Of a DNA stretch of 29,470 nucleotides, positions 117 through 29,470 are shown piece by piece. Location of the stretch: contig JYFJ02001099.1 of NCBI GenBank assembly GCA_000934665.2, positions 62,001-91,470 of the forward strand. Reading direction: 5' to 3'. Origin of the DNA: Catajapyx aquilonaris (taxonomy: Eukaryota). A model generated the notes under the pieces. The model ran no database searches. It was not told where the DNA came from and saw only the letters and a program-made list of their open reading frames with translations. Position 1 is the stretch's first letter. Each line of letters starts with the position of its first letter. Both the position numbers and the translations under genes were made by a program.

Positions 117-1758
117 TTCACAGTAAAGGCCGTGAAAGACTACCAAGCAGCCCAGAGAAACGAACTGTCGTTCAAGACGGGCGCAATCATCACCAATGTC
201 ATCAAGGTGTCTGGTGTGTGGTGGAAGGGCGACTACGGTGGGAAGAAAGGGCATTGGTTCCTTAGAAAATACACGAAGGAAATAGATCAACCAACATCAG
301 GAGCTGAGGAACATCAGCAGACAGTAAGTGTGCGATATATTCCAGTAACATTTAAACGACATTTAATTAATCTAATAACAAGACAGATGAGCCGGAGAGT
401 TGGGCCAAAGGCACGATGGATGTTACGGGCGTTACGGCCGACGTGAGTGAACGGCCTGGAATGCCCTTTCCCTGGAACCTGAGGATTCAGCCGCAGTCCG
501 GACGCAACGTTCTGAACGTCGAGTTCTTCTCGAAGGAAGAAGCCACCAAATGGAAGGACAAGATAGTCGAAATTGCAAGAAAAGCTGCTGATAAGGTCGG
601 ACATTTCGTGTTCCAATGGATCTTCTCGGGGTTCTTTTTTCAATAACAAGCCTCGAGTATCTCATATGGTTTCGTCATATCTGTCTGAATCGTTGGTCCA
701 CAGGAAATCCGTCGTATCAAGATAGAGCGAGAGAAGAAAGTGGCTAAAGAACTATCCAACCTGATAGTCTACTGCCAGGCTGTCACTTTCAATCTGGAGC
801 GTCTGAAGGGTCCAAAGAGATTCAGAGAGATGAGTTCAGTCACGGAGATTCGAGCAGAGAACCTTCTGGTTCGGAGGGAACACATGTTCTTCCTGCATCA
901 CCATCAGATCCAGCTGACCCGGGTCTACCCAAAAGGTCAGCGATTCGATTCGTCCAACTATGACCCGACTCCTTGCTGGAACGTGGGTTGCCATATGGTC
1001 GCACTCAACTACCAGACACCCGACTACTCCATGCAGGTCAGATTAAGATCAGGTCAAAGTTCAAGTGATTCATAATAAATATTGCAGATCAACCATGGAA
1101 TGTTCCTTGGCAATGGAGGCTGCGGGTACCTGCTGCGTCCGGACTGCATGTTCGAACCCGGGTACGACCCGTTTGACCCGGAGACGCTCGGGGTTAGTCA
1201 CACCCGGGTGCTGCGGGTCAGGGTCATCGGAGCCAGACATTTGTCCAGGGTCAGCAGTGGGGGACGGAGACTCGGGGTGCTCTCTCCCTATGTGGTGGTA
1301 GAGGTCATCGGGGCTCCTTACGACTCAGGGGCCAAGAACCGGTACAGCACTCTAGCTTTGAGTAAGTCGCAGCCTTTAAATATGAAATTTGAGTAGTTTT
1401 AATAATGTTTTTAGTTGACAGCGGATTCAGTCCTTTGTGGGACGAATGGACAGATTTGAGTGTGAGGAACCCCGAGTGCGCCTTGCTGAGGTTCGTGGTG
1501 TACGACAAGGATGCGTTCAACGAGCCGCATCTGGTGGGACAGGCGACCTACCCGATCGCCTGCTTACGACAGGGTTACAGGAGCGTACCATTGAAGAACG
1601 GGTACAGCGAAGAGCTAGAGCTGGCGTCGCTTCTGGTGCATCTTCAGGTTCTCATCGGGAAGGAAGAAGAAGAAGAAGAGGTTCAATCACCCAGGATGCT
1701 GCAGGACGGAAGGTTGACAACGTTCTTCGGCGATGACATTGACGAATCGACAATGTAA
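117..1758 (+). CDS. PLCG: Phospholipase C-gamma, 3' part (SH3, C-terminal half of split PH, catalytic Y box, C2); 5' exons lie outside the window
   Basis: Exons 117-323, 383-595, 704-1036, 1088-1361, 1415-1758 join in frame across GT-AG introns. SH3 FTVKAVKDY..ELSF..WWKGDYGGKKGHWF; Y box ELSNLIVYC..EMSS..QLTRVYPKGQRFDSSNYDP..MVALNYQTPD; C2 RVRVIGARHL..LRFVVYDKD..GYRSVPLKNGYSEELELASLLV. The order SH3-cPH-Y-C2 is diagnostic of PLC-gamma. Confidence 0.95.
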
Positions 1759-2129
1759 GGTATAGGATGTGCTAATGACGTACTGTGTATATGACTTGCT
1801 TCGTATTGCAGGGATATGCAACAAGAGATGGAACAGTTATGGACAAGGATGTACGACTCATACGTAAGGAATGAGGAGGAAACATGCTTGTGAGACATGC
1901 CTAATTCGTTGCGATGTTTTTGTTCAGATAAATTGCAGACTGAGTTGCAATAAACCTGAATGTTGTTACATGAAGTCTTGTTATCTCCTATCCGGAAGGT
2001 GTCATATCTAAGCCACAATAATTATCTCGCTGTTCCTGAAATAATACGTCACACGTTTCACTAGAAATTTTCCCATTACGTGTCACTACCCTGAATAATA
2101 TATTACTAACCGTCACTAAATATATGGTC

Positions 2130-2139
2130 GGGAAAACCC
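2130..2139 (+). promoter_or_regulatory. kB-like site GGGAAAACCC in the promoter of GPI-family gene 1 (second site GGGAAAATTTC on minus at 2064-2074)
   Basis: Resembles Rel/Dorsal consensus; lies between a TATA-like TAAATATA (~2117) and an Inr-like TCAGTT (~2159). Motif match only. Confidence 0.45.
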
Positions 2140-2175
2140 ACCGTTCAAGAGTGTGCCGTCAGTTGTTCAGCAACA

Positions 2176-2889
2176 ATGAAGGTGGCTACCGTCCTCTGCG
2201 TCTTCGTAGGTGAGTTTGGTTGATTTTATCATTATGAAATTGAAGCCAATAATAATTGCACGTGATTGACAGCTCTTTCTGCTAACTCGTGTTGGGCACA
2301 GGCGCCCTTGTGCCTAAGGAAACTTAGCCAACAACTTGAGGAAATCAAATCTGCGAATGCTTTCGGTAACAACTTAACTGTTACGTGCAGGTGAGTATAA
2401 TGACGATTAGTGGTAAAAATAGAAACTATTGTGCCTAAACTTCCTGTGATATTTTAACTCGCAGGATAGGGAAGGACATGTACGAGTGTCTGCAGAAAGT
2501 GCTGAGAGACAATCCCCCTCCTGCATTCCGCAAAGCCCTTACGGGTCCAAGCGACCACATCAGACGAGTCATCATGGTAAGTGCACATATGGTAGATATT
2601 TCTCACAAACGGTATACAATATCCAGAGAGAGAGAAAAAAAATGTAGTCTTTCCGTTTCAGAATCTGTGTTTGGAGCAGCTGCCAGCAGAACATGAAGGC
2701 ACTTCTACTCCCTCACCATACACCACGCCCCTTGATCTTGAAGCCACGCCTCAAACCACGCCTTTCACACAAAAGGCTCCGCCTCCTGCGGACAATCTTG
2801 ACAGCAGTAACACTGGATTGTCAATTGCCCCACGTTTCATCCCATTAATACTTATTCTCGCGCACGTTAGCGCAGCACTAATTCTCTAA
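2176..2889 (+). CDS. Secreted, predicted GPI-anchored 4-Cys helical protein, paralog 1 (163 aa)
   Basis: Exons 2176-2209, 2273-2390, 2465-2576, 2662-2889 (phases 1,2,0). Signal MKVATVLCVFVALSANSCWA; domain CLRKLSQQLEEIKSANAFGNNLTVTCRIGKDMYECLQKVLRD..VIMNLC; Pro/Thr stalk; DSSNTGLSIAPRFIPLILILAHVSAALIL* GPI-type tail; AATAAA ~25 nt after the stop. Confidence 0.88.
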
Positions 2890-3256
2890 CAAAATGTAAC
2901 TTATAACTTACAATAAAATTGATATTTTACGTCATATTTTAGTAATTACAAGTATTTTAGTCACACTGGTGGTCGAGCCACCAATTTGTCTGTCTTGGCA
3001 CGTAATGATCCAACAGAGTCAAGTGTTGTAGCATGTGTTTGTTGACTGATAAAGTTTAAGTGCACCAGCCTTTGAGTTTTTAGAAATTCACCGGGGATTA
3101 CATATCTGCTGATAAGATTAAAAATGTAAGCGGCGGATAAATGGAATTTGCCGATAAGGGAGTTGCACGTCCGAAAGACGTTGGCTGCTGATTAAACATA
3201 TCAGGTGCAAGTGCTAATGTGTCAAGTTCAGTCGGTTTAATTAGCTCAGAGGAACA

Positions 3257-4364
3257 ATGAGGGTCCTCTGCTGCGTACTGGTTGGTGAGTTTAGTGAATT
3301 TCAATGCATTTTATATGTCGCCAATCGTTTCTGTCACTTTCATATTAGTGACATTGTTTGCTACAAGTTGCTGCGGAAATGATTTTTCATGTTGGGACCG
3401 ACTAAAGAGGGAGGGAAAGTTGGATCTGTTAATCCATGTGGATGACGACACGGGTGTCGACTTCACTGCTCTGTGCCCGTAAGTGCAACGCAATAAGTAG
3501 GCCTATATTTTAAAAATGGAAATTTTGTCTGTAAGTAAGATGTTCATATGGTGAGTTCCATCTAAAATAAACTGTCCGTAGAGACTAATTTATACATTTT
3601 TATAATTAATCTGCTTACTATATTATCAAGAGATAATAACTTGCTATTATGAAGCTTCTGCCTGTGTTTACGGACAATCAAAAATATTGTCTGCTTATAT
3701 ACACAGATTTCTGTTGCTTATTTATCAAGATATATTTTCAGTAATTTGCATATTTTTAAACGGTTACTTTCTAATAGTTAAAATGTTACCTGGTAACTTT
3801 TTGTTGTCTATTAATGAATTAATATTTTTCTCAGGAAACTTAGGGAATTAGTCGATTGCTTGGACCAGCTACTTAGAAAGCGTCTTTTTCCTAAAATAGA
3901 AGCGGAAGAGACGGCTACCTTCAGGCACCAAATTCAACAATACCTCATCGTAAGTTCACGCCCCCGTCTATCTGATTGATCTCATAATTATTAGTGAGTT
4001 AAAAATAATTAATCGAAAACATTGTACGCATCATGTATGCGCAAACAAGTGCACTTTTCAAGAGTGTATCAGGTTGAATCATCACATGAAGTACTTAGAA
4101 GCTTATTATACTTAAGTACTTAAACATCGTCTTAGACAATACAGATTTGGCCATATTTGTTATTAATCTATAACATGATTTTTCTCTCCAATTCAGGAAT
4201 ACTGTTCGGAACACAAACTTGGCAGCAGTAACACTGATGGAATGTTAGTGACTCCACATTTCACAATGTTTCTTTGGTTAATGTTGTGTTTTTATTCACT
4301 TGGCATAGTGACATTATTCGCGAAGGAGAGACCCGGAGAGAACTGTCATGTTTCGAGAAAATAA
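3257..4364 (+). CDS. 4-Cys helical family paralog 2 (146 aa); last exon runs into exon 2 of the next paralog, giving a TM segment plus short tail
   Basis: Exons 3257-3284, 3349-3478, 3835-3949, 4197-4364 (phases 1,2,0). MRVLCCVLVVTLFATSCCG-NDFSCWDRLK..FTALCPKLRELVDCLDQLL..YLIEYCSEHKLGSSNTDG..HFTMFLWLMLCFYSLGIVTLFAKERPGENCHVSRK*. Confidence 0.82.
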
Positions 4365-5109
4365 AGGAAAAATGGGGATTACCTCTACCTGTGAACAACC
4401 AGGGTTACACCAGCCTCACCACACTGTGTCAGTAAGTACCATAGAAGCTGTAATACAAGGAATGACGTAAACTGCCCAAGTCCACCACAAGACCATCTTC
4501 AAATTAGCGTTACCAGCAAATATGACAAAATAATGAATAATTAAATAAATGTAAAATATATGACTATATTTTTCAGGGTGGCTAAGGAGGCGGATGATTG
4601 CGTGACTCTGGTGCTGGAAGATGATCACGTCCTTACTCCACAAGAAAAAAAACTCTGGAGGAATTACGGGAAAGATTACAAAACCTTTCTCACAGTAAGT
4701 TGACCGAACATGACATGAGCAACACGTACAAATAATTATGGCAACAACTTGCAAGTGCGTAAAATTATAAAGATGTTTAATTCCTCATATTGTGAAGGTA
4801 ACATTTGTGAAAATGGCTTAATCAGTCGTTATGCAGTAATGACTTGTATTTATCATGATGGAATTTAGTAACATTAGAGTGCATTATTCCAACATGTAGG
4901 AGTCTCATAATTTTCATATTTTTCAGAAATACTGTTTCGGGTCACCGCCAGCAAAATACGAAGGTAATCCCAGGTCATCATCACGTTCCAAGCATCCTTC
5001 TGACAATCTCGGCAGAAGCAACGCAGGACTGGCAGTTAAACCCAATAATTTTACCCAGTTAATCCTTCTCTTCACCGCACTTTGTATTATGAACTGGTTG
5101 AAATTTTGA
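4309..5109 (+). pseudogene. Headless paralog 3 (exons 2-4 only; frameshift near 4325-4340), or an alternative exon cassette of paralog 2
   Basis: Exon 2 4309-4431 (VTLFA../ELSCFEKIKEKWG..SLTTLCQ), exon 3 4577-4694 (VAKEADDCVTLVLED..EKKLWRNYGKDYKTFLT), exon 4 4927-5109 (KYC..DNLGRSNAGLAV..LILLFTALCIMNWLKF*). Splice sites intact; no own exon 1; the VTLFA and ELSC segments are in different frames. Confidence 0.7.
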
Positions 5110-5200
5110 TGTAGCTCCTTGTAATAATCAAATGCCAGCTGATGTATGACGGTTTGTGTCATATTTCACTTAATAAACCCTGCTTATTATAAACACTATA

Positions 5201-5290
5201 TCCTCCGGACAAACTTGGCCGCAGTAACACTGGATTGTCAAGTGATCCCACATTCCGTTAATGCTTCTGTTTAGCTTATTAAAATATGAT
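5201..5290 (+). pseudogene. Orphan remnant of the family's GPI-signal exon
   Basis: cctccggacaaacttggccgcagtaacactggattgtca (PPDKLGRSNTGLS) matches the ends of paralogs 1 and 5; no upstream acceptor or domain. Confidence 0.7.
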
Positions 5291-5436
5291 AACCTTCATT
5301 CAGTATGCAAAATATTGTATGTCTGATTTTTATTAAATATATATTTTGCGGTGATAATAACTAGTGAACCCATTGCAAATATTTGGCGAAACCTATCGTA
5401 TAGGACGATCAGACACCTTTAATGAGAAGGCCAGCG

Positions 5437-5560
5437 GATTTATCACGCAGTACTACTCTTCATACGCAGATGGCGCATACTCCCTCTGCACACTCCTGCC
5501 ACCCTCAGGTCGTGCGAGAGATAGCTGTACTATGTCGGACAAACATCCGACAGAGAGAAT
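5437..5560. repeat. Dispersed ~125-bp repeat, copy 1
   Basis: gcagtacta..agatggcgca..ctgcacactcctgccac..ggacaaacatccgac.gagagaat recurs at 11431-11555. Confidence 0.8.
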
Positions 5561-5813
5561 AAGCCTATTAGGAGAAATATTATTTTCCTATAGTCTTAAA
5601 GTGATTTTGTACGCAATTATTAAGAGGCAAGGAAAGAAGTTTGTACAATGTATACAATAATAAGGATGAGCTGCGGTGGAGAAACTAGAAGATAGGAACA
5701 TCAAGGGGGGAGTAACAAGTCTTGTGGTTTCTTGAAAGGATGTTATGACTGTTATTTTTACAAGGAAAGTATCCTTCAGTTCCAAGTGTGTCGTCTTAGG
5801 TTGTTCAGCAACA

Positions 5814-6741
5814 ATGAAGGTTGTTCTCTTCGTCATCGTGGGTGAGTTTGGTTTGTTTGAACCACAGGGCATTGAATCTGAAGCATTAAACCATACGTTG
5901 CTTACACTGTCTTGATTGACAGCGGTTTTTGCTAATTGGTGCATGGGACAGGAGGAGATGCCTTTGTGCTTGGCGAAATCTGAACAAGAACTTGAGGATA
6001 TTGATTCTGATGAGGATGATGTCAGCTTAACTGCTAAGTGCCAGTGAGTAATGGTTTTTAGTATAATTTTTCTTTTAAAAGACACAAAGGCTCGGTTGTA
6101 GTACTGGTACTGAAAGCATGAATATAACTGATCATATTTTTATTAATGAACATTTAGGGTGGAATTTTTGTCACACTGCTAGTTAGCAAAATCATAATTA
6201 TTATGCCCTCATTACCGCCTGGACCTTTGATCATTTGGACGTTAAATTTTTGGACAGTACCTGCTTATACTGTATTATATCCGCAGGGTAATTAAGGATC
6301 TGCATGACTGTTTGAATAAATTGCTGGAAGATGGTTCCTATCCTGAATTACTCGAAGTAAGGGACACATCCGGAAAATTCTACAGGGTAAGTGCACATTG
6401 TAGTTATGTAAGCCCTTTCACATAAATAATGGATACTGCCTCCCTATAATATTGCTTGTAAATTATGGCTTCTCCAAGATGAACAAATTGTATTATTTGC
6501 ATATTGGTTACGTTATGCTACAATGATTGCTTTCCTTTTTTTACAGGAAATCTGTCTGGTGCTGCTTCCAGAAGAATATGAAGACATCGCACCACCTGCC
6601 ACATCACCTGACACGTCTCCTGCTGATGCTGACATAATTGGCAGCAGTAACAATGGATTGTCAATTATTGCACCTCATTTCATCCCGTTCACACTTTTCT
6701 TTTCATTGCACTTCGTATTGCTTGCAATGCTCTTTGTCTAA
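5814..6741 (+). CDS. 4-Cys helical GPI family paralog 4 (147 aa, acidic)
   Basis: Exons 5814-5841, 5923-6043, 6287-6386, 6547-6741. MKVVLFVIVAVFANWCMG-QEEMPLCLAKSEQELEDIDSDEDDVSLTAKCQVIKDLHDCLNKLLED..FYREIC..GSSNNGLSIIAPHFIPFTLFFSLHFVLLAMLFV*. Confidence 0.88.
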
Positions 6742-6777
6742 CTTACTGAGATGTACTGTACTGTACTGTACCCTACA

Positions 6778-6870
6778 AATTGGCAGTCTCAGTAACAGAA
6801 TGGGTTGTCAATAATTGTACCACATTTACACTTTTTTATTGCACTTTATTGTCTTGCTTACTAACCTAAC
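6778..6870 (+). pseudogene. Second degenerate GPI-signal exon copy in the 3' UTR of paralog 4
   Basis: aattggcagt..cagtaaca..gttgtcaataattgtaccacatttacactttt..attgcactt repeats 6637-6712 with indels. Confidence 0.6.
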
Positions 6871-6882
6871 TATCGAACAAAT

Positions 6883-6941
6883 GTGATGGGAACTTGGAAT
6901 AAAATTAATTGCCAATTAATTTCATTCCAAGTTCCCATCAC
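6883..6941. repeat. 59-bp near-perfect palindrome overlapping an AATAAA
   Basis: gtgatgggaacttggaataaaattaattg-c-caattaatttcattccaagttcccatcac: 29-bp arms, one mismatch. Confidence 0.9.
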
Positions 6942-7283
6942 TGGCGAGATATTTTAAAACAGATCTATACACATTTTATTGGAAATTTCAGGAAAATGTG
7001 TGCACGCACTATATGCTTGTGATTGTGGAAGATATTTTCGTGCCGTGAAATTGCAAAATTGCGAAATGTTTGCGATCACACAATCAAGAAGATTTCTATT
7101 TCGGTAATCAAACTGATAATGAGTCACCCGCCTATCCCTATATGTACTGAATGATTACGAGCTTGCTGTAAATAAAAGTCTGATTAGGGAAAATTACCCT
7201 TCGGTTTCTGCAGGATGTAACTACAAGTATATTTACTGTCAAGATAATATAATTATTTCAGTCCTTTGTATAGTTCAGCAACA

Positions 7284-7317
7284 ATGAGGCTTGGTATCGT
7301 CCTGTGCGTCTTTGTCG
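7284..7317 (+). pseudogene. Orphan exon 1 (signal peptide) of the GPI family with lost donor site
   Basis: gttcagcaacaATGaggcttggtatcgtcctgtgcgtctttgtcg (MRLGIVLCVFV) has the same leader as paralogs 1 and 4, but is followed by atgcaa instead of gtgagt; kB-like GGGAAAATTACCC at 7187-7199. Confidence 0.65.
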
Positions 7318-7809
7318 ATGCAAACAATACAATCCAATTACCTAAGTATCCTGATGTAAGAGTCACCCTGTATTGTGCGGGGATGACTCATTAAAAAAAA
7401 GTTGTACACAAAATAATGAAAACTATACTTTATAGCAGTATAGGCAGAGTTACATTTAGGGTACTTCTCTTTTTTTTTACTGAAGGAAATGTTTTTTTTG
7501 TTGCTCTTATGGGTATATTTTTTTTGAACAGAAATTTCGGCAATAATGGGACAAAATAAGGATTTGACATCGGTACAATTTGGTTAATTCTAACTATTTC
7601 AGGACGCGTATGACGAGTTGAAATTTCGAAACCGGGCTTCCCTGTCGGCTGATAATTAATATTTAAAAATATAGGTAGTGAAAAAAAACCCGGATATTTG
7701 GTAATGGGATGTGGTGCGGTGGGTGCAAACTAAAATACGTACTATATCATATATAAGTTACGCCTACGTATACTGTGTGATTCAGTCAGTTAAGATGCAG
7801 GAACAAAAT

Positions 7810-8723
7810 ATGAAGCTGACAGTCCTCTGCGTCCTGGTTATTAGTGAGTTTAGTGAATTCCATGATCGCTCATTTGAACTAATACACATTATCACTAATA
7901 TTTCTTGCAATTTACAGTCACATTATTCGCAACTCAGGAGAGCCGGGGACAGTATTTGTCATGTTTGGATCGACTCGAGCTTGACGGAACATTGGATTCG
8001 CTGTCATTGATGCTCTTCTCTCTAAGCGACAACTACCCTGCTATGTGCAGGTAAGTGTAAACGAGGTTACTATTACGTGGTAATTTGTATTGATTTTTTT
8101 TTCCATTTATGTGTACATACTCATATTATTTATTTTCTCAGGATGAGTAGGCAACTGGCCGATTGTTTGGACAAGCTCCTGAGGGTTCGTCCAATTCCGA
8201 AAGAAAAAGAAGTAGAGTACACTAGTGTCAGGAACAAAGCGCGACGATTTATCACCGTAAGTTCACACATATCTGCTTGACCTCATAATTATATGAGCAA
8301 GTTAAAAAATTCTCCAAATACCAATAGTACTTTCCAAAATAATAGCACATATGGAGGAAGTAACAGCTGTGTTGTCTTATAGACAATGTATGAAACTATC
8401 TTGTATTTATATATGCATTTAATTAACTTATAACGTACCATATAATTTTCGTTCCGTTTCAGAATCATTGCTCAGCGTATCCGCCGGACACAACTATTAA
8501 AGACATATCTACTCCTTCATCACAAACCACGCCCCTGGTACCTCCTCAGACCACGCCCCCTGTTAAAACCACGCCCCTTACACGTCCTCCGACCCCGCCC
8601 TTTCCACAAAACGCCCCGCCTCCTCCAGACAAACTTGGCAGTGGCAGCAACAATGGATTGTCGGTGACCCCACATTATTTCACCCTGTTAATAATGCTTT
8701 ATGTTCACTACTCCTTTGTCTAA
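7810..8723 (+). CDS. 4-Cys helical GPI family paralog 5 (180 aa, long Pro/Thr stalk)
   Basis: Exons 7810-7843, 7918-8050, 8142-8256, 8463-8723. MKLTVLCVLVIITLFATQESRG-QYLSCLDRLE..YPAMCRMSRQLADCLDKLL..FITNHC; TTP repeats; GSGSNNGLSVTPHYFTLLIMLYVHYSFV*; AATAAA at ~8754. Confidence 0.88.
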
Positions 8724-8838
8724 CTTACTATAAAAACGTGAAGTATATCCTACAATAAAAAATGATCTGAATTATCCGCTAATAAGATTTTATGTCTTTA
8801 AGTATAATCTGCAAAAATTTCGCAATGAAGCAGTGCAT

Positions 8839-8849
8839 GGGAAATCCCC
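8839..8849. promoter_or_regulatory. kB-like site GGGAAATCCCC (also GGGTATTTCC on minus at 8981-8990)
   Basis: Match to GGGRNWYYCC; intergenic, ~1 kb upstream of coiled-coil gene A. Confidence 0.45.
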
Positions 8850-9123
8850 TAAGGTATGTCCCAGCTCGTGGTCCAGCTGGCACCAGACTTCTTGTAAACA
8901 AACTATAGTTTCCTGCTAGACATAGCTCAAGGACTATGAAAGCCAGCAGGATCATGAACTATAATGATAGTCCAACCCGTGGAAATACCCGAAACTCTTT
9001 CCAAAGCTAGTTGGCCATGAAGTTTAATTTTGGCACAGTCTGTGGGCCGGTTAGCATTGAGAGCAGTCAGGGTCAAAGTCAAGGTCCTTTCCTTTACTCA
9101 TTATTCCGAGAATTCATGTACAG

Positions 9124-9519
9124 TACACTCCGGATACATATACTCATTGCACGGGTTAAATGTGTTTATCCCGGAAAAAAGATCACTCTTGTCATGGTTA
9201 TTTAACCCGGACATTTCTTAGTCGTGGTTATTTAACCCGGACATTTGTTAGAGTAGAGTGTATACACTCTAAGAAATGTCTAAGAAATTGTCATGGTTAT
9301 TTAACCCGGACATTTCTTAGTCATGCTTATTTAACCCGGACATTTGTTAGTCATGGTTATTTAACCCGGACATTTGTTAGAGTGTATCGAGTGTATACAC
9401 TCTAAGAAATGTCCGGGTTAAATAACCATGACTAAGAAATGTCCGGGTTAAATAACCATGACAAAAGTGATATTTTTTCCGGGATAAATACATTTAACCC
9501 GGACATTTCTTAGAGTGTA
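9124..9519. mobile_element. Non-autonomous foldback/MITE with TA-CACTC...GAGTG-TA ends and 30-bp subterminal repeats (CACTA/EnSpm-like)
   Basis: Unit tcatggttatttaacccggacatttcttag in several direct and inverted copies; 9151-9222 is the reverse complement of 9430-9501; internal gagtgtatacactc end-to-end junctions at ~9256 and ~9389. Superfamily assignment is inferred from the termini. Confidence 0.8.
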
Positions 9520-9611
9520 AGCTGAGACATGGCAATGTTGTTGGGATATCAATTTAATCGTATGATGACATCAGACCTTTCCAGAGAGGGCAAGGAACGG
9601 TGTTAGTCTGA

Positions 9612-9622
9612 GGGGAAATCCC
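9612..9622. promoter_or_regulatory. kB site GGGGAAATCCC upstream of coiled-coil gene A
   Basis: Canonical kB consensus ~200 bp upstream of Inr-like TCAGTC (~9816). Confidence 0.5.
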
Positions 9623-9768
9623 TCGTAACATGTGACATGTAGGAATAGTGTTTAAATGTACAGATAAAATACAAACAATATAATGATATATTGTTACTTA
9701 TTAGTTCTGAATAAGCAAACTTTAAAAATTGAGTCCTTTTTTAAAACATTTTAGGGCATCAAACGTAG

Positions 9769-9780
9769 TTGTAACCCTGC
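9769..9780 (+). promoter_or_regulatory. Conserved proximal promoter 12-mer TTGTAACCCTGC (also 12483-12494 and 14553-14564)
   Basis: Identical 12-mer shortly upstream of the first exon of each of three paralogous genes. Confidence 0.65.
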
Positions 9781-9955
9781 TTTGTTTATAGCATGTGGAC
9801 TTCCTTGAACTTTATTCAGTCGCTGTTCGGAGTTGCAGCCGTGCAGTCGGACACGTTGGTCTCCATTCGACAGAAAGGTATGGTAACAGTTCATTTTCGT
9901 CAAATCGTTTTGCTCATTTTTTCCCCCTCCAATTTCCAGTAATTTCGTGACCATC

Positions 9956-11764
9956 ATGGCCGGTCCTGCAGCTGGAGTTATGATAACCAGCGAGATAATT
10001 CGTGCCATCAACAATTCACGAGAGGAAGACATGCGCAAGATAAATGTGCGAGCTGCTGTTGAAGAAGAGCAACGCAGAGGAGACCAAAGAGTCAACGAAG
10101 TGGTCAGTCAATCCATGATATCTGACTTGAAGAGACAGCTGAAGGACAAGGATAGGGAGATTCAGAAAATGGTAAGGACATGCTACAGCGCAGTCATCAC
10201 TGTGAGATTAATACTTTTTATTAAATAAATTCGCAGAAAGAAGAAATAGACAGACTAAAAGAGCAGCTAGATAAAAGTCGTAAGGTTGAAAGTGATCTGC
10301 AACAACAGGTGTATAAAAACAGTGCTGATGAAACTGTTCAGAAGTTCAGGTCTGAACTGGCTGCAGAAAAGCTGGCAGATAGGGACAAGCAGTTGGACAA
10401 AACTGTGAGTCTGTTTGTTTGTTTGTTTGTTTGTTTATTACACTACAAATTCTCCCAACAGAAAGAACTGGTGTCACATTTGACCACTAGACTTCAGAAG
10501 TCTGAAGAAGACATGAGTGACCAAAAAGTTCTAACTGCCAGGATGGAAACAGAGGCAAAAGTGCTGAGAGACCAGCTGACCCTATTCATTGACCACAAGG
10601 AGAAGGTCAGTTGTATCATATACTCATTGAATGTGACCAGCTTGACCTCTGATGGCGTAATTTTTGCAGGATTACGCTCGCTTTGAAAGTGTGCTGCAGA
10701 AGTCGATGGAAGCAATCGTTTACATAATGGACTCCAACCAGAAGATGTTGACTCAGGTTGCTGCAGCCTCGAATCGCCCTGCCCTGGGTCCTGCCCCGAG
10801 CAGGAGCGTCCACAGCTGGATCCAGAGTTTGCCCAGGGTCCCAGAAGATGACCATAGGAGCATATGTTACCCTCAATCTGATGCCAGAACCGTGGTAACC
10901 AGGAGGACATCTGTTCCTGAGACCACCACCAGCAGGAGACCTAGGGACGCCCCTTCTGAGGTCAGCAGGGGTCACCGAAAGCCTGAGAGTGTGACCAGCA
11001 GCCACTGGACCAATGCCCGCAGCATCTCCAGCAGGATCAGCTCCAGCAGCGATCGTAACGCGTACGAGCGCAGGAACATGCCAACAACAATCAGAGCCAC
11101 GTTTCATCCCAAAAACAAGACCGGAATCAACAAGAGGATTGACCTGAGTGGACACAGGGTCGGGGACAGTTTGGAGAAGTTCCTGGAACCCATATTTGAC
11201 CAACATCATGACCTGACCCAAGAGGTCATCAGGAGACCCAGGCAAGCCTGCATCGATGCCCTGCACGATCAAGATTACTCGCTGCGTGTACTAGGTGTCC
11301 TATCATTTAATTTTTAATATCCGATTAATTTCCAAGTAGACTTTCGGATAACTAGGTTATTATTGATAACTAATAACTATATTTCTGTCCATCGAATGTT
11401 TGTCCGACCTCAAGTTATGCGCTGGAGGTCGATTTACTATGCAGTACTATTCTTAACGCATAGATGGCGCACTTCCCCTGCACACTCCTGCCACTCTTAG
11501 GCCGTGCGGGTGATAGGGGTACTATCAGGTGGGACAAACATCCGACGGAGAGAATATTTTTGTTTTTGAATATTTTTCGATGCTCTTGAACCGTTATTCA
11601 TTTACATTTTCCTTTTGTTTTCAGATAAGGACAATAAGAAGTGGATAAGGGTCCGCCAATTAAGCGACCTGATTAACTCATGTCCAGTCGACAGCCAGTA
11701 TATCCACGTCTACATTGTGCACGACGACGACAAGCAAGGAGTCCTTGAAGAACTGACGAAATAA
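9956..11764 (+). CDS. Coiled-coil protein A (430 aa): coiled coil, Ser/Arg-rich linker, C-terminal PB1/ubiquitin-like-looking domain; no membrane anchor
   Basis: Exons 9956-10171, 10237-10404, 10462-10605, 10670-11294, 11625-11764; 5'-UTR intron ~9878-9939. Heptad-rich ISDLKRQLKDKDREIQKMKEEIDRLKEQLDK; C-domain TIRATFHPKNKT..FLEPIFDQHHDL..YSLRVLDKDNKKWIRVRQLSDLINSCPVDSQYIHVYIVH. Confidence 0.82.
11431..11555. repeat. Dispersed ~125-bp repeat, copy 2 (last intron of gene A)
   Basis: Aligns with 5437-5560. Confidence 0.8.
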
Positions 11765-12227
11765 TTGTGATTAAAAAAGCATTTTTGTAATAATTGTTCC
11801 AAAAAAAACTATACATCAGCGTTAACCGGATATTAATTACTGTACGTTTGTACCTCAATATTATGTGTATATTATAATCATGCGAAAAATAAAAAGCGAG
11901 GCATTTTCAGTCTTCAAACGTTCGTAATTGCTACTGTACAGCCTATTTTTACAACAGGTGTATGACCGGCGTATGTAAAGATGGTAAGTGCACAGTACTG
12001 GATTTTGTACGAGCATCAATTCATGATCATGGTCAATTTCCGGATTCATCTTAGGTAAGTAAAAGAAGGTCAAAGTCACTTATTGGTGACTCCGTCCGGC
12101 GACATTACGTCCTTTATTGCGCTCTTCAAGTAGCTTGATTGACCTAATCTACGCTTTATAAATAACGATGTGTATCACCACTTCCTGTTTCGGACTTCGA
12201 TAATAACCATCAACCAGCACAGTGAGA

Positions 12228-12238
12228 GGGGAATTCCC
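12228..12238. promoter_or_regulatory. kB site GGGGAATTCCC upstream of coiled-coil gene B
   Basis: Palindromic canonical kB core; weaker GGGACTTTTT at ~12370; Inr-like TCAGTC at ~12508 and ~12515. Confidence 0.5.
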
Positions 12239-12598
12239 TCTAACCGTAATTCCCAGAAAGCCCTGGCAATGTTCCATTATCTACAACTACCCACACATAC
12301 CAAGGGATGTCCAAAGTTGGTGCAGGTTTTTGCTGGGGTCGACAATCGACGACTTATTCCTATAGCTGGGGGACTTTTTGGAAAGTGCGAACACGTGTGA
12401 CATAAAATGCTAGTGTATGATCGTTCTGTAAATTGCAATAAAAATAAACTGCATCGTAAAATTGAAAGTACGTCCTAGTTAGTTGTAACCCTGCCCACAT
12501 GTTACTATCAGTCGTCAGTCGGCATCTGGCCTTGGATAGAAGCAGAGGTCCAGTTGAGGATACACAGCTCTTTTAAATCCTCCAAAGTCTGAATAACT

Positions 12599-14253
12599 AT
12601 GGGAGCGTAAGTACATGTTACAGTTAACTTTAATTACTTGGAAGCCAATCGGTTCAATTAGTCTTTATGGGACTAACAGTAAGTTTTTAAAAATTTTTTT
12701 TAAATGGAACATGATATCAAAATGTGCAATTTCCTAAGTGAGTGTTTGGTTAATTTTTTATACTGTACTGTACTTGCACTATAAAAATGTCCATTTTACG
12801 TGACGCAATTTATTTATGTATGCTCAGCTTGTTGTTGTAAAAAATATGACATGCTCATTTTTTTGAGGTGACAGAAAAATATGAATTTAGCTGTTTTTTT
12901 TTTTGTGTGTGTGTTTGAAAATGACAACTATGAAATTTTTTTGTTTCAGTGATGGAAGCAAGGAAGCTTTAGAAAGAGACAATCGTAACCTGAGCAGTGA
13001 GATACGAAGGAAGGATGAAGAGGTCAAGGTCATTCGACACGACATCAGTCACCTCAATGACACAATTAGGGAAGGAAGATCTCGTCTTGAACGAGAGGTA
13101 AGAAGCCTATGACTCATTTATGAAACACTTTGTACACAGTATACATTTTTGTGTGTGTGTGTAATATGACAGGAAGAAGAGAGCAGACGGATGCGCAGAA
13201 GGATTGACAAGTTGGACCATACCAACAGGGGACTTGAAAATGAAACAATTAGGCAAAAACACGAGCTCAGATTGAGGGATGTGCAGATAGAGCTGGCGAA
13301 AGAAGAGCTGAAAAATTCGGAAAGGAGAATGAAGAAAAAGGTAAAGCCAAATTTTGTGACAGTTCAACAAGATATTTTTTTTGCTGATTCATTATTAGGA
13401 ACATGATTTGAGATGTTTGCGAGAAGACATAGAAATTCTGGCTGAAGAGAAAAGAGAGGTGGAAATAATTGCAGCAAGGACACAACGACAATGCGAAATG
13501 CTGGTTTGGCAAAATGAGCGTGATCGCGAATCATACGAGGAGAGACTGGCCATTATGGATCGACAAGCTGAAAGAGTAAGTCTTAATTGCAATTATATTT
13601 AACTGCAATGATTTCAACTTTGTTTTTTTGCAGAGCAGCAACGCAATCCGTCTTTTATGCGGCACTATCAACACTTTTGTCAACAACCAACCCACGAACT
13701 GCCTTCCATCAACCGGAACCACTCTTGCAATAACAAACGGAACGTCTGTTTCCCCAAGAAGACAACAATCCAGAAGAAACCTTGTCAGAAAAGTGTCTTT
13801 GACATTTTGCCCACTAGGAAAGACAAGTAGCGCAATACGGAAATTTCCACTTCTGGCCAAAGAAAAAGAAGGATCATATCTGGACTCCATATTTTACCTT
13901 CATGAGGATCTCAGGTCGGCCATTATCCCTGGATACAACCAGGATTTCTTAAGTGCACTGAAAAGCAATGGATATGAAGTGTTCCTCGTAGGTGAGTTGC
14001 CTTTTGTGCTTGTTTTTCTGCTTGTACTTCTTTCTGCCTATTTATAGATCCAGAGTACTACAACTTTGTGAAGATGACTACCCCAAGGACCCTGAAGAAG
14101 TTCATTCGAGACACACCTGAGAACAGTAGTCACCTGAGGTTTTATGTTGTACATGGAATGGAAGGAATGAAACGAATTCATCACGAAATGAATGGGTTCG
14201 ACTGCGCCTGGTTCTTTGTCATCATCTTCAGCTTTTTCTTAATTTTTTCATAG
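12599..14253 (+). CDS. Coiled-coil protein B (354 aa): predicted N-myristoylation, coiled coil, PB1/Ub-like-looking domain, C-terminal tail anchor
   Basis: Exons 12599-12606, 12950-13097, 13173-13340, 13399-13575, 13634-13991, 14048-14253. Starts MGADGSK (G2,S6,K7); domain KVSLTFCPLGKT..YLDSIFYLHEDL..YEVFLVDPEYYNFVKM..HLRFYVVH; ends CAWFFVIIFSFFLIFS*. Confidence 0.85.
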
Positions 14254-14618
14254 GCTTCAGTTATTGGCGAATTAGTGGTGTCAATTTAAAAAAACAACAA
14301 CAGATCACCACAAATTGTCAAATGTACATATTGCATAAGAAAAAAAAAGTGTAAAGTGTCCAAAATGTGATCTTCATGATTATAATTCCTTGTTTATATA
14401 TATTAGACCCTATAACCTGCTATAACTACAAGTAGTAAATAGAATTGTGTAGTTTATACGTATCTGAGAGCCATGTCAGTTAAATAAAGCGATTTTCTCC
14501 TAATTATTTATTCCTTCTGACAGGTGTCTGTAATGTGAATGTTTTTACCTAATTGTAACCCTGCTCAGTTGTTATCATTTGCATACCAGACTCTGTAGAA
14601 ACCAGTGCAGCTGAAGCT

Positions 14619-16219
14619 ATGGGAGGGTAAGTACACACTATTTGGTCAGTTACATTTGGTGTTGTTTAAACCAACAAAGGCAGTATGTGGAAGTTCTGGA
14701 AAAGTTTATGCTTGCTGAAAAAAAAAAGTGGGCCAATCAAAATTATAACAAAAAAAATTCGTTTCAGAAACGAAAGCAAACAAGGTTTGGAAAAAGGTAA
14801 TCGTAACCTGAGCAGTGAAATACACAGGAAGGATCAAGAGGTCAGGGTCATTCGACATGACATTAGACATCTTAATGACCAAATTAGGGATGGAAGAGAT
14901 CGAATTGAACGAGAGGTAAGGATCTATATGATTCATTATGAAACACTCTGTACACACAGTACATTCGGTATATGTGACAGGAAAAAGAGAGCAGACGGAT
15001 GCGACGGATGATGGAAGATTTGGACTATACAAACCAGGGACTTGAATATGACGTAATAAAGCAAATGCAAGAGCTCAAAGTGAAGGAAGTGCAGATAGAG
15101 CAGGCGAAATACGAGCTGGAAGAATACCAAGAAAGAATGATGGAAATGGTATGCCAATTATTAATTTTGCAACTATATTTTACTAATTTTGCCGTTTTTT
15201 TTGTTGACACGCCATATAGAAAGATGATTTGCAAAGGTTGCTGGCGGACATGGAAAATCTGGAGGATGAGAAGAGAGAGGCTGAAATATATGCAGCTAGG
15301 AAAGAACGCGAATGCGAAATGCTCGTTTGGCGAAATCACCGAGACCGCGAAACATACGAGGAGAGACAGGCCATTATGGATCGACAAGCTGAAAGGGTAA
15401 GTTTTTTTTTTTTGCAAGATTTTTGGCAACACTGCCCTGCCCGCTTCCCACTGTGGATGTAGTACGACATGCCACCAACCAGATGGCGCGCCCATCAGCA
15501 CACTTACTCTCACCACGCGGTAACTATGGTAGCTACATGCACGTTGGTGATGAGTCAACACGTGTATAAAGACACGCCCAGCCAATTCTTAATAAGGACA
15601 ATTCGCACTACATTTTGGGTATGTTGTAATGATATTACATGTCAGTTGTTTCGAATTTCAGGACAGTAACAAGATCCAATTTTTATGCAACACGATCAGC
15701 AGTGGTGGAAACGCACAGTCCAGTCTTCCATGGTCAACAACCAAGCTTGCATTGACAGATTCGCCATTTCTGTCCAATAAGACAGAAGAGCCATCAAGTT
15801 CTTACCTTCATGGTCTCTTGGGTGAGGACTTTGTCGTTATAGCTAGGTTCACAACGGACGTCGTTGTCGTTAGGTTGGGATTGGACCAAAACCAGGATGG
15901 ACCATATACAAAGATGCTGTGATTGGTTCATCCCAACAGCAACGACAGCCCGTGCGTGAACACATCTTTATTTTTCTTTTACATGTTACTTATTGTCTAT
16001 AAGTCAACATCTGTTCCCGCTGTTTCAGACCCTGAATATCACGAAATTTTGGGAAAGGCTGGCACAAGAATTAAGAAGAAGTTGGTTCCAGACACACCCA
16101 AGACCAGCAGCAGCAGTCATCTGGAGAAAAAGGAACACAAATTGAACTGGCTCGATTACATCTGGTTTCTATTCGTCATCTTCTGCCTCTACACTATTTA
16201 TTTAATAGTCTTCAGATAG
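14619..16219 (+). CDS. Coiled-coil protein C (283 aa): close paralog of B, myristoylation motif and tail anchor kept, globular domain largely deleted
   Basis: Exons 14619-14626, 14768-14915, 14981-15148, 15220-15396, 15662-15821, 16029-16219; exons 1-4 have the same lengths as in B (8,148,168,177). Starts MGGNESK; ends WLDYIWFLFVIFCLYTIYLIVFR*. Confidence 0.85.
15838..15970. mobile_element. Degenerate palindromic MITE in the last intron of gene C
   Basis: gttcacaacgg..tgtcgttaggttgggattggaccaa / ttggttcatcccaacagcaacgaca..ccgtgcgtgaac form imperfect inverted arms. Confidence 0.5.
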
Positions 16220-16424
16220 TGCATTTTGTCAATTAAAAACAGTCTGAAATATAGCTCCACAATTTGGGGCGAACATGATTTTAAATAATTGCTTATTATT
16301 ACTAAAGTGCTAATTACAGCATCACTTTCATACAGAAGAGTCATGTCCAGTTTGCCTGAAACAATAGCTAATTAACATGTCTCCAAAAGGGAATTAACTT
16401 GCGGCGGATTGTAACCAACCTTTG

Positions 16425-18044
16425 CTAAAAACGTGTCCTGTCGTCTGCACCTGACCTTTTGTGTGACCTGGCACATGTTTCCTGAGTACATTTCCACTCT
16501 GCATTCAATCGAGACATGTCCAATTGCATCTGATGTACTTGATCTTGCAGGTGTTTAATTTTGGTGTAGGTCCCTCCAGACTGAAATAATTTAACAGGTG
16601 GTTAACAGTGTTAACCATCTGTAAAATGATTTCTCTCTGTTGAATTATGTTGAGACTAAATCGTGTTAACCGAACATGGTTTGTCTGGACGTAATTCGAC
16701 ACTGACAGAAATCGGTTGGGTTGCATCATGCAAGGATGAAAAGTAACCCAAGTGTAACCTTTTCATTTTTTTGCAACATAACAGTATAGTGTTCATAGTT
16801 TGTATAAATAGACATAATAATTAAAGAATTGTCCTACTATTTGACTTACCAAACTTACTTTATAGTCAGACTTGTCCTGCATAGTTTCCTGGAGTCTCTC
16901 GACATCATGCTTCTGAGTCATTTGCATGGCAGACATTGAGTTTTTGATTTCATCCAGAGCCAAACTTTGCTGGTGCTGCTTAGCCTTCATCACCCTGATT
17001 TGTGTAGATATTTCGTTGAATTTTAAGTTAGTCTGAAATTAACATACGTCATTTTAGAGGATTCGGCGACGGAAGTGTCGTAGGCTGTATCCTCGTTTGA
17101 TGAATGATGCTGCCCCCCCCCCCCCCAAAACAACCTCTATATAAAGGGATCATCTGTATAGTGTCCAAAGAGTCTAAATAACATGGTACATCATTAATAC
17201 AATTACCTGGAACACAATGTGTTCAACTTTGCTGACAATTTTAGCTCTGTCAATTATTTCTGTGGAGTCATACTCGTTTTTCATTCCTTGAATTGTTACA
17301 TTCATGCTGTAGACAAACTCGGTCAAAGACTGCACCTCGGATTTCAACCTGTGACGTATACAGTTAAATGAGTAATCACTACAAATGTAACATACCCATA
17401 AAGACTTACGTGTCACTTGAAGATTTTGACGAAGAAAATCGACTTTTTGAAGAGTAAGCGCCATCATAGTGATTTTCCTTCTTAAATCACATAAATTTAA
17501 TTAGCACGTTTCATAATGTCTCATTACAACAAATAAAAGGGCTCACCTTTTGCTTGGCTGACCCAGAGTATGACTTCACCTGTCCTTTCCAATCATCAAT
17601 GTCTCGAGCTTGAGCTTTCTGTCATGTACCCAAAATATTATTTATTCTTGCGAATCTAAAATATATATAATTATATATTTTTAAATTATTGCTTACAAGA
17701 GTTGCTCGAAAATCATTAGTGTCTCGTTTCCTTTGCTCTGTCACTTCTTTTCTCAAGTGGTCCAACTCTCTTCGTTGACTCGAAGCAGATTCGTCACATG
17801 CTTTTCGGACGTCCCTGAACCTGTCGTCCACATCTCGAAGTGACCTGGACAAGTTGTCCACATCGCTCTTCAGACGCCTCACCTCATCATCCAATCGACT
17901 GGGATTTTTTTTTAAATAATTAAAACAGAACAATCAGTGTCGTATAAAGAACGCCTATACTGTGGTCAGTTAATTAATTAATTGATTGATTGATTGGCTG
18001 ATTGATGTGGTTCACTGCCCTATAAGGTGAACTTACCAGCTCAT
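16425..18044 (-). CDS. Coiled-coil protein D (~274 aa), convergent with gene C; last exon uncertain
   Basis: Minus-strand exons 18044-18037, 17898-17697, 17618-17547, 17480-17410, 17348-17207, 17032-16859, 16580-16425 join in frame: MSCRLDDEVRRLKSDVDNLSRSLRDVDDRFRDVRK..LKSEVQSLTEFV..LDEIKNSMSAMQ..KIKHLQDQVHQMQLDMSRLNAEWK. Confidence 0.7.
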
Positions 18045-18281
18045 GACTGGGCGACTATTTCTGCTGAACTGTGATACACTTGCAGACCCACAAATATTAA
18101 TCTCACTGACAGCACTTATCACAGGTTTTATGGAATTATGTATAAACTGACAACCACTGTTATATAGTATTAAATGTTATAAAGTATAAATGATTATCAC
18201 ATTTGACATGATCCAATTAGTTTGTATTTGCGAGCTATAAAAATGTCAGCGAGTTGCAAAAACACTTTGTGGAAGCCTGCA

Positions 18282-18638
18282 GAAAATCCCCGCTCTCTTC
18301 CAAGAAAGACTAAAGTACAGTGTGAGATAAAACGTGCTCAATATGGAAAGATTGGGATAAGGATTATGGAGATAACGTTTGTTATTGTTTCTGTCAGCCC
18401 ATTCATTCATCTTACGCAGAACAACCTTTAACCTCATTCACTTGACCTTGCTGCGACCATTTCTAACAGGACTTGAGAGGGCCACATCTGGCGCCAAAAT
18501 TCCAACAGCTTTTAAAGCTGTCTGGCGCCCAGAACAAAAATTGGTGGTATTTCCCACTCTTACAAGCCAGAATAGCCTGCCACGTTGGCTGCTGTTTGTT
18601 TATGAGTCTGCTAAACATTTTATCTGAGGGTTTTCCCC
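18282..18638 (-). promoter_or_regulatory. Two kB-like sites upstream of gene D: GGGGATTTTC (18291-18282) and GGGGAAAACCC (18638-18628)
   Basis: Motif matches to insect Relish/Dorsal-type consensus. Confidence 0.4.
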
Positions 18639-28564: not shown

Positions 28565-29470
28565 ATGGAAGGCCAAGGGAGGGCAAGAGGTAGGGCCAGG
28601 GGCCGCACGCAGGCTCAGGCCATGGGGGAAGGGGCGGCCAGGCCAGGGAGTGAACCGGTGGCATCAGGATCCCAGACGCGCCCCCCGGTTGGAGGCGGAA
28701 GGGCCGTGGCTGCAGGGGAGAGACCTCCTGCTCCGGGAAGGTCCCAGGCACCACCAGTCCCGCAGGAGGCAGCCGCCCAGCCAGAGAGGGTCGTGACCGC
28801 TGGTGCCGCTAGCTTGCAGAGGGAGTTGGCCGCAATGGCCATCCAGGAGGGTGAGCCACTTCATTTGCTAGCATTGCTTTTGCAGGCCTCGTCAAGTGCT
28901 CCAAGTACAAGGTGCATTGATCTCCCACATGTTGCATGTTGATCAGGTGGCATGATTATGCTTTTACAGGAAGTGGCAAGGAGGTGCTGGTGGGCAGGGG
29001 AGGCGCCAGGGAGAGTAGGGATCGCCGAGTTGAACATGTTCGCACCCGCCCAGACCACGTCAGCAGCAAGCAGGGCAGCACAGGCAGGGTCGTCAAGCTG
29101 ATGGCCAATTACTTTGAAGTGGTCAAGCGTCCAGAGTGGACCCTGGTTCAATATCGGGTGGACTTCACCCCAGAAGAGGACCGCACATCTGTCCGGAAGG
29201 GGATGCTGCGTTCCTGCCGTGAAAAATTGGGGGGAGACTACATTTTTGACGGAACTGTCCTGTACATGAATCGCCGCCTCCCAGGGGATCGCCTGAACAC
29301 CTGCTGCGAACGTGGGACCGACCAGGAGAAGATACAAGTGACTGTCCGCATGGTGGGGGAGTTGCAACCATCAGATCACATGTACCTCCAGGTGTTCAAC
29401 ATCCTGCTGAGGCGCACCATGGGGCACTTGAAGCTGGAGATGATAAATCGCCACTTCTACGACCGCCATG
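28565..29470 (+). CDS. piwi: Piwi/Aubergine-clade Argonaute, N-terminal part (truncated by window end)
   Basis: Exons 28565-28850 and 28970->29470 (phase 1). MEGQGRARGRARGR (RG/RA methylation motif), RTRPDHVSSKQGSTGRVVKLMANYF, WTLVQYRVDFTPEED, YIFDGTVLY, YLQVFNILLRRTMGHLKLEMINRHFYD: typical PIWI-clade N and L1 domains. piwi versus aub cannot be resolved here. Confidence 0.95.

Follow-up and report, generated by a model that had tools for sequence, protein, structure and literature searches.

In a window of 29,470 nucleotides (nt) from Catajapyx aquilonaris, by which we mean the whole stretch of DNA analyzed, an island of eight genes lies between a PLC-gamma-type gene and a Piwi gene. The window is nuclear animal DNA with short GT-AG introns. 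Our analysis indicates that the island probably holds two unrelated, lineage-restricted birth-and-death families that are neighbors by chance: (i) glycosylphosphatidylinositol (GPI)-anchored surface glycoproteins (family 1: GPI1, GPI2/3, GPI4, and GPI5), and (ii) doubly anchored cytosolic coiled-coil rods together with degenerate derivatives (family 2: CCA, CCB, and CCC). The eighth gene, CCD, stands apart from both. The original prediction saw here a co-regulated defense module, with the chance adjacency of two duplicated families as a fallback, and it is the fallback that the evidence favors. The gene structures are real, and the defense module is without direct support. Both families would have grown through tandem duplication and decay; we saw no evidence of functional coupling between them and favor taking their adjacency as chance.

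We built the exon models of the eight genes by hand from a reading of the sequence, using GT-AG introns (Table 1). In all eight, the frames are open over four to seven exons with canonical splice sites. Transcript evidence came from the contigs of a single public run, X1, whose type is unrecorded and which contains 35% of the sampled window words. At least 99% likeness to the window was found in 19 of the 27 aligned contigs. The X1 contigs skip exactly the modeled introns, with GT..AG ends (CT..AC on the minus strand), and therefore derive from spliced RNA. Among the joints listed, beside which there are 13 more joints and 50 contig pieces, matches were found for all six introns of GPI2/3, all five of CCB, one of CCC, and one of CCD, together with one extra CCD joint. 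Both families are thus transcribed and spliced.

The units of family 1 follow a common exon plan with intron phases 1, 2, and 0. The hydrophobic signal peptide is encoded by exon 1 together with the first part of exon 2. Of the four cysteines, Cys1 and Cys2 belong to exon 2 and Cys3 to exon 3, and Cys4 is found at the beginning of the last exon. Beyond Cys4 come a Pro/Thr-rich stalk of very variable length (longest in GPI5), a conserved stretch of small residues, a spacer, and finally a hydrophobic C-terminus. The 4-Cys domain is ~75 residues long, and its four Cys columns and the small-residue motif before the tail are conserved in five of five domains, each of which also has the spacer. A GPI signal would consist of small omega residues, ~6-10 spacer residues, and a hydrophobic end that no cytoplasmic tail follows. 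We assessed paralogy by Smith-Waterman scores, expressed as z against 200 shuffles, and all 10 pairs of 4-Cys domains gave a z of at least 5.0. Hydrophobic 15-residue windows begin at residues 1 to 6 in all four genes, and a C-terminal hydrophobic window passes the hydropathy threshold in three of them (GPI1, GPI2/3, and GPI4). GPI1 has the full layout of signal peptide, 4-Cys domain, Pro/Thr stalk, and GPI-type tail, and is hydrophobic at its N and C ends; X1 depth is low across its region (1993-3320), and its joints are absent among those listed. GPI4 is nearest to GPI1 (64 of 139 aligned residues identical). A 612-nt X1 contig fits GPI5, with 8463-8779 at contig positions 296-612, as expected if exons 1-3 (282 nt) are preceded by a leader of 13 nt. 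The family 1 layout suggests a GPI-anchored, probably O-glycosylated surface protein, and the 4-Cys domain may form a small helical bundle with two disulfides. Such a protein would be secreted, O-glycosylated on its stalk, and held by GPI on the outside of the cell membrane.

Five GPI copies had been predicted. The five domains, with their equal intron phases, stand, but they belong to only four genes, copies 2 and 3 being the two 4-Cys domains of a single gene. A single 813-nt X1 contig fuses the two copies and spans six GT..AG joints: 3283>3348, 3478>3835, 3949>4197, 4243>4309, 4431>4577, and 4694>4927. The last exon of the first unit ends at 4243, and the 65-nt intron 4244-4308 takes out the old spacer and hydrophobic tail. 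Downstream of this intron, the reading enters the former exon 2 of the next copy, whose exon 1 is gone. The frame of GPI2/3 is open solely in the spliced form. We propose that a deletion fused two adjacent copies, and that a donor inside the former GPI signal of the first copy now splices the tail out, which would yield a two-domain protein with a single anchor.

The island was also described as carrying birth-and-death debris, which two fragments of family 1 bear out, one from a last exon (the omega-site region) and one from a leader and first exon without a splice donor (Table 1). A further GPI-family fragment, near 6770-6860, was found by eye only. The "fast turnover" attributed to the families was overstated, as the paralogs are old: dS (synonymous divergence) is 0.41 between CCB and CCC and 0.7-2.6 among the GPI copies, which are identical at 24-46% of aligned residues. 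The ratio of nonsynonymous to synonymous divergence (dN/dS) of whole proteins is 0.24-0.59 for the GPI pairs. In the pair GPI1-GPI4, the mature domain has a dN/dS of 0.98, the signal peptide one of 0.27, and the stalk plus tail one of 0.38, from small samples of 18-67 codons. This pattern bears on the idea of a gamete-recognition or self/non-self locus, in which fast-evolving surface proteins would serve cell-cell recognition, perhaps in the germline, beside Piwi. We consider such a locus quite improbable. Near-neutral change in the exposed domain, the variable stalk length, the domain-duplicated member, and the adjoining germline gene would fit it. However, dN/dS near 1 is confined to one pair, the other five having whole-protein values of 0.24-0.57; the adjacency of Piwi is uninformative on expression, with ~10 kb of repeats between; and the coiled-coil family is left unexplained.

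By architecture only, family 1 comes nearest to small GPI-anchored mucin-like glycoproteins such as CD24/CD52, the Trypanosoma cruzi mucins, and Dictyostelium PsA. Common to both are a signal peptide, a short ectodomain, a Pro/Thr-rich stalk, an omega-site region, a hydrophobic tail without cytoplasmic residues, and an organization in tandem multigene families. Family 1 differs in having its own ~75-residue 4-Cys domain and conserved intron phases, and exon-wise comparison found no sequence similarity. The Ly6/uPAR proteins are likewise small, disulfide-bonded, GPI-anchored (a prediction in the present case), tandemly duplicated, and fast-evolving. The Ly6/uPAR domain has 8-10 cysteines in a beta-rich three-finger fold. 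We rejected this assignment for family 1, which has four Cys per domain, segments that are amphipathic-helical by inspection, and no UPAR_LY6 match.

Family 2 is made up of three paralogs (z = 74 for CCB-CCC, 15 for CCA-CCB, and 6.6 for CCA-CCC). A 168-nt exon is common to all three, and an 8-nt first coding exon is common to CCB and CCC, whose exons are 77-82% identical in nucleotides. In the N-terminal part of these two, 106 of 167 residues are identical, with the dS given above and a dN/dS of 0.50. A crude heptad score marks a coiled coil over the ~150-170 N-terminal residues of CCA, CCB, and CCC. In CCB, a Met-Gly start is followed by ~170 amino acids (aa) of coiled coil, a linker, a C-terminal domain, and a terminal membrane anchor; its five introns are all seen as GT..AG joints in X1, and its first exon is confirmed by the joint 12606>12950. 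CCC has CCB-like ends and has mostly lost the C-terminal domain; the joint of its shortened intron 5 (15821>16029) is confirmed in X1. A relic of the domain remains in that intron, as CCB residues 167-353 align by tblastn over 15659-16201, intron included. CCA, which starts with Met-Ala at a downstream ATG, has the coiled coil, a long Ser/Arg/Thr linker, and the ~90-residue C-terminal domain that it has in common with CCB (z = 14.6).

The coiled-coil proteins had been called membrane-tethered. This holds for CCB and CCC, in which the sole hydrophobic window lies at the C-terminal end (336-354 of 354 and 259-283 of 283, respectively), as in tail-anchored proteins, whose one membrane-spanning segment falls within about the last 30 residues and which have no N-terminal signal peptide. 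It fails for CCA and CCD, which have no hydrophobic window. The PROSITE-type rule for N-myristoylation asks for Gly2, a permissive residue 3, a small residue (Ser, Thr, Ala, Gly, Cys, or Asn) at position 6, and no Pro at 7. By this rule, CCB and CCC, as read from their models, are candidates, with Met-Gly, Ser6, and Lys7; CCA (Met-Ala) and CCD (Met-Ser) are not. We infer from these features that CCB and CCC may be myristoylated and inserted by a tail anchor, and may have a tethering role. Each would be a cytosolic rod with its two ends fixed to membrane, and would either lie along a single membrane or bridge two. CCA would have lost both attachments and is probably soluble, and CCC would have lost most of the C-terminal domain. 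The predicted character of the proteins is supported in that they look like extracellular surface proteins of GPI type and coiled-coil tethers that face the cytosol.

The nearest systems to family 2, again by architecture only, are tail-anchored tethers (golgin-84, giantin, CASP, SLMAP, and TRAF3IP3). Like them, CCB and CCC have a long cytosolic coiled coil, a single C-terminal anchor, and no signal peptide; unlike them, they are short proteins (283-354 aa) and have the N-myristoylation-type start, and exon-wise Pfam scans found no sequence similarity. We know of no tail-anchored tether family with such a start or with the ~90-aa C-terminal domain of CCA and CCB. In the part of the literature that our search reached, no family of tail-anchored coiled-coil proteins with an N-myristoylation start turned up. 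A Met-Gly start with a small residue 6 is also found in N-myristoylated adaptors (TRAM/TICAM2 and GRASP65), and would keep a protein on the cytosolic membrane face. These adaptors differ in having TIR or GRASP/PDZ domains, none of which the exon-wise Pfam scans detected here, and in being without a C-terminal anchor. We also tried a TIR-like reading of the CCA/CCB C-terminal domain, whose start resembles box 1 by eye. TIR domains have ~135-160 residues with boxes 1-3. The ~90 residues of the CCA/CCB domain fall short of this length, and exon-wise searches, a weak test here, gave no TIR match at E ≤ 1.

Two introns of family 2 have features of their own. CCA intron 2 (10405-10461), of 57 nt, keeps the frame and contains no stop codon, and its retention would therefore add 19 residues without a frame break; by tblastn, CCA residues 69-176 align unbroken over 10225-10605, across this intron. 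CCC intron 4 (15397-15661) has 265 nt, where its CCB counterpart has just 58 nt. In it, X1 contigs skip 89 nt in a non-canonical way (15445>15535, TC..CT) and have loose ends, at 15422/15423 and 15559, that lead into unrelated sequence, which suggests a repeat or polymorphic insertion.

CCD had been listed with the coiled-coil genes A to C. The three paralogs stand as a family; CCD lies on the minus strand and is only marginally similar to them (z = 3.1-5.0, a score reached by 1-3 of 200 shuffles). It may be an inverted paralog of them, as its 8-nt first coding exon is the same, but with a similarity of only z of 3-5 we did not adopt this reading. The protein is coiled-coil, without a Gly2 start and without an anchor. 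Its listed X1 joints are 16859>16580 (intron 6) and 16420>16120 (an extra intron, 16419-16121), both with the CT..AC ends of the minus strand. The CCD stop lies 5 nt ahead of a further donor. The exon after this donor, which runs downward from 16120, lies antisense to the last coding exon of CCC, so that the 3' exon of CCD on the minus strand and the coding part of the CCC last exon on the plus strand overlap at 16029-16120. One X1 contig passes from the CCC splice through the shared piece into CCD exons. This is as expected of overlapping convergent transcripts, and the two genes form a natural antisense pair within the island. CCD would be a gene of its own that encodes a coiled-coil protein and converges on CCC, with its 3' end in antisense overlap.

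The debris and the relic raise the question of whether the island is largely decaying or non-functional sequence, made up of transcribed pseudogenes or of young genes without a selected role. Besides the fragments at 5194-5255 and 7273-7320 and the domain relic in CCC intron 5, this reading could draw on the absence of homologs from exon-wise searches and on dN/dS values of 0.4-0.6, which are high for essential genes. We nevertheless judge it very unlikely. Eight models keep open frames and canonical splice sites, spliced transcripts exist, and dN/dS below 1 at dS of 0.4-2.6 speaks for long-term constraint. The signal peptide, the Cys columns, the omega region, the Met-Gly start, and the membrane anchor have all been kept between old paralogs. 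Selection on both families thus appears to be purifying to relaxed, judging from the dN/dS of CCB-CCC and of the GPI pairs, so the genes are probably not dead.

No named gene had been recognized among the eight, and exon-wise Pfam and database or profile searches for both families upheld this, with 0 homologs. The queries of all homology searches were single exons or alignments of exons. In Pfam, nothing reached its cutoff, whether with eight exons of the coiled-coil family or with 26 whole or partial exons from the two families, and only generic sub-threshold coiled-coil matches were seen; the best sub-threshold match among coiled-coil exons was Rootletin, on a CCD exon (19.5 bits versus a cutoff of 36). 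With 11 GPI-family exons at E ≤ 1, there was just one unrelated sub-threshold match. Golgin, SLMAP, and other named coiled-coil families were sought exon by exon, with no family-specific domain (e.g., GRIP, GRAB, or FHA) or significant match. Against longer proteins, CCB exon 5 gave 296 candidates with none at E ≤ 0.01, and a profile of the four GPI last exons gave 8000 scored candidates with none at E ≤ 1. A profile of the exon 5 type of CCB, CCA, and CCC gave none at E ≤ 0.001 among 1.84 billion representatives. A PDB sequence search found no relative of solved structure (best E-values 0.48, 0.67, and none), and the best ESM Atlas score for CCB exon 5, 0.76, was at chance level. Metagenome scans confirmed none of 509 pattern matches to CCB exon 4 and none of 593 to the GPI1 last exon. 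As a control, a Piwi exon retrieved five proteins from 881 candidates. The best was 43% identical, and therefore no close relative of the organism is visible in the word-indexed database. Because the searches were exon-wise and the control found no close relative, the "orphan" status of the families is unrefuted rather than proven. Within the window, tblastn with the eight proteins found no family member beyond 2176-17915.

The original prediction rested co-regulation on kB-like sites placed upstream of most of the genes. We scanned the window with the strict 10-nt kB consensus and found 17 matches (both strands, overlapping registers) at eight loci, versus 4.51 expected; at least 17 were reached in 0 of 100 shuffles. 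Four loci lie in the island, three of them intergenic (Table 1) and the fourth, at 10944, inside CCA exon 4. Of the four loci beyond the island, three are within or beside a transposon-like inverted repeat (25890-26451). With upstream windows of up to 500 bp, counted back from the ATG or, for CCA, CCB, and CCC, from a shared 12-mer, we found a strict site in two of eight windows, those of CCA (9613) and CCB (12228). One-mismatch sites occur in six of eight, at a density (13 in 3,666 bp, 3.55/kb) that matches the background of the window (80 in 29,470 bp, 2.71/kb; 2.05/kb in the island), without enrichment. Neither the claim about sites upstream of most genes nor the co-regulation built on it is supported, given that CCA and CCB alone are preceded by strict sites and that the relaxed ones stand at the background level. 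The perfect palindromes ahead of these two genes may still be a lead.

These counts bear on a defense module driven by NF-kB/Rel, in which the GPI proteins would serve at the surface as variable receptors or decoys, with the coiled-coil proteins as co-induced membrane-bound adaptors. The strict sites at 9613 and 12228, the third at 8839, and the excess over expectation speak for such a module, as do the near-neutral mature domain of GPI1-GPI4 beside constrained processing signals, and tandem families with debris and no detectable relatives. However, six of the eight genes, including all four GPI genes, are without a strict site; sites with one mismatch do not rise above background; the strict sites of CCA and CCB are not in alignable promoter positions; half of the strict loci lie outside the island, most of these at the inverted repeat; and the Pfam scan found no TIR, death, or other immune domain in any exon. 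We therefore regard the module as unlikely. A bolder version would make CCB and CCC an undescribed class of short coiled-coil rods, pinned at both ends by N-myristate and tail anchor and acting as membrane-contact or signaling scaffolds, switched on, together with CCA, through the perfect promoter kB sites, with the fast-evolving GPI ectodomains as the extracellular sensing arm of the same lineage-specific immune module; we hold this to be highly improbable.

An exact 12-nt motif does recur in the leaders of CCA, CCB, and CCC (Table 1). The three identical copies plus one variant (16409) compare with 0.21 expected, and four were reached in 0 of 100 shuffles. The upstream DNA around the motif is no longer alignable among the three genes, and the idea of homologous kB positions in their promoters was dropped, as the upstream regions cannot be aligned beyond the 12-mer. 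The motif is a candidate core-promoter or leader element. The variant (16409-16420) lies ~190 nt downstream of the CCC stop and exactly at a CCD donor, and may be a vestige of a lost fourth copy on the plus strand.

Several points weigh against the reading that we favor, that of two unrelated families side by side by chance. An immune or recognition role would predict both the perfect kB-consensus sites ahead of CCA and CCB and a dN/dS of 0.98 in the GPI1-GPI4 mature domain, and these would fit a functional coupling of the families. The signal-peptide, GPI, and myristoylation calls come from hydropathy and from motif rules, and the C-terminal tail of GPI5 is only weakly hydrophobic, below the hydropathy threshold. 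Five of the seven CCD introns are GT-AG models with no joint among those listed. No X1 contig covers CCA (9961-11952) or GPI4 (5313-6640), which in a single run is uninformative on expression. Finally, a family or fold that spans exons could escape homology searches of the kind used here.

Table 1. Features of the island and its flanks (positions within the window)
Feature	Positions	Strand	Structure or context	Evidence
GPI1	2176..2889	+	4 exons: 2176-2209, 2273-2390, 2465-2576, 2662-2889; 163 aa	GT-AG model, open frame
GPI2/3	3257..5109	+	7 exons: 3257-3284, 3349-3478, 3835-3949, 4197-4243, 4309-4431, 4577-4694, 4927-5109; 247 aa	
GPI4	5814..6741	+	4 exons: 5814-5841, 5923-6043, 6287-6386, 6547-6741; 147 aa	GT-AG model
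GPI5	7810..8723	+	4 exons: 7810-7843, 7918-8050, 8142-8256, 8463-8723; 180 aa	GT-AG model
CCA	9956..11764	+	5 coding exons: 9956-10171, 10237-10404, 10462-10605, 10670-11294, 11625-11764; 430 aa	
CCB	12599..14253	+	6 exons: 12599-12606, 12950-13097, 13173-13340, 13399-13575, 13634-13991, 14048-14253; 354 aa	
CCC	14619..16219	+	6 exons: 14619-14626, 14768-14915, 14981-15148, 15220-15396, 15662-15821, 16029-16219; 283 aa	
CCD	16425..18044	-	7 coding exons: 18044-18037, 17898-17697, 17618-17547, 17480-17410, 17348-17207, 17032-16859, 16580-16425; 274 aa	
Debris, isolated GPI-family last-exon fragment	5194..5255	+	omega-site region	repeat search, 80% to reference; tblastn with GPI1 and GPI2/3
Debris, 5' untranslated region and exon-1 fragment	7273..7320	+	GPI1/GPI4-type, without splice donor	repeat search, 81% to GPI1 start region
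Exact 12-nt motif	9769..9780, 12483-12494, 14553-14564	+	leaders of CCA, CCB, and CCC	
Strict kB-consensus site, intergenic	8839..8849	.	after GPI5, ~0.9 kb before CCA 12-mer	
Strict palindromic kB-consensus site	9613..9622	.	156 bp upstream of CCA 12-mer	
Strict 11-nt palindromic kB-consensus site	12228..12238	.	255 bp upstream of CCB 12-mer	
Flank, PLC-gamma-type gene	129..1755	+	3' exons (SH3, PI-PLC-Y, C2)	Pfam
Flank, Piwi gene	28565..29469	+	first coding exons	Pfam

The proposed borders of the island, PLC-gamma and Piwi, are borne out by Pfam domains on both flanks: SH3_1 (E = 2.4e-10), PI-PLC-Y (E = 2.5e-24), and C2 (E = 1.3e-7) on the left, and ArgoN (E = 1.2e-6) and Piwi_N (E = 2.2e-5), at 28936-29469, on the right. 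The 3' part of the PLC-gamma-type gene terminates at ~1960, and the closest database relatives of the Piwi flank are Piwi/Siwi proteins, at 39-43% identity. By eye, a duplicated block at 23430-24025 (copies at ~23440-23500 and ~23860-23920) contains CCAAT-like, CRE-like, and TATA-like elements, and downstream of it is a short exon whose last three letters, ATG, directly abut a GT donor at ~24021. The Piwi gene may have its non-coding first exon here, 4.5 kb ahead of the coding start.

We note several repeats in and beside the island. An element at 9152-9501 resembles a miniature inverted-repeat transposable element, with 103-nt terminal inverted arms (95% complementary) that enclose ~30-nt tandem units; it lies between GPI5 and CCA, flanked by the kB-consensus sites at 8839 and 9613, and X1 contigs have a 5-nt deletion at 9249 and odd joints there. 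A dispersed repeat that looks like a short interspersed nuclear element (SINE) has copies 77% identical at 5464-5533, between the GPI debris and GPI4, and at 11456-11525, in CCA intron 4. A tRNA-Ser(GCT)-like pair (20136-20209, minus strand, and 27679-27750, plus strand) is inverted, with 66-nt arms 89% complementary; only the 20136-20209 copy reaches the Rfam tRNA threshold, and the pair probably represents tRNA-derived SINE heads, or a tRNA gene and its decayed copy. The repeat-rich 10 kb between CCD and Piwi also holds a nested palindrome (20293-21369) that resembles a foldback transposon, with arms of 179, 138, 89, 71, and 55 nt that are 87-94% complementary.

If both families were co-induced by a Rel factor, the island would count as a new and compact immune module, which nothing in the present evidence requires. 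Lineage-specific tandem duplicates of this kind are an ordinary feature of invertebrate genomes. Within this ordinary setting, three features deserve attention: (i) an exact 12-nt element has been kept in three otherwise diverged leaders; (ii) the predicted myristoylation-type start and tail anchor on a short coiled coil would be an unusual combination; and (iii) GPI2/3 offers a clean example, backed by transcripts, of genes fused through intronization, a former GPI signal being spliced out.

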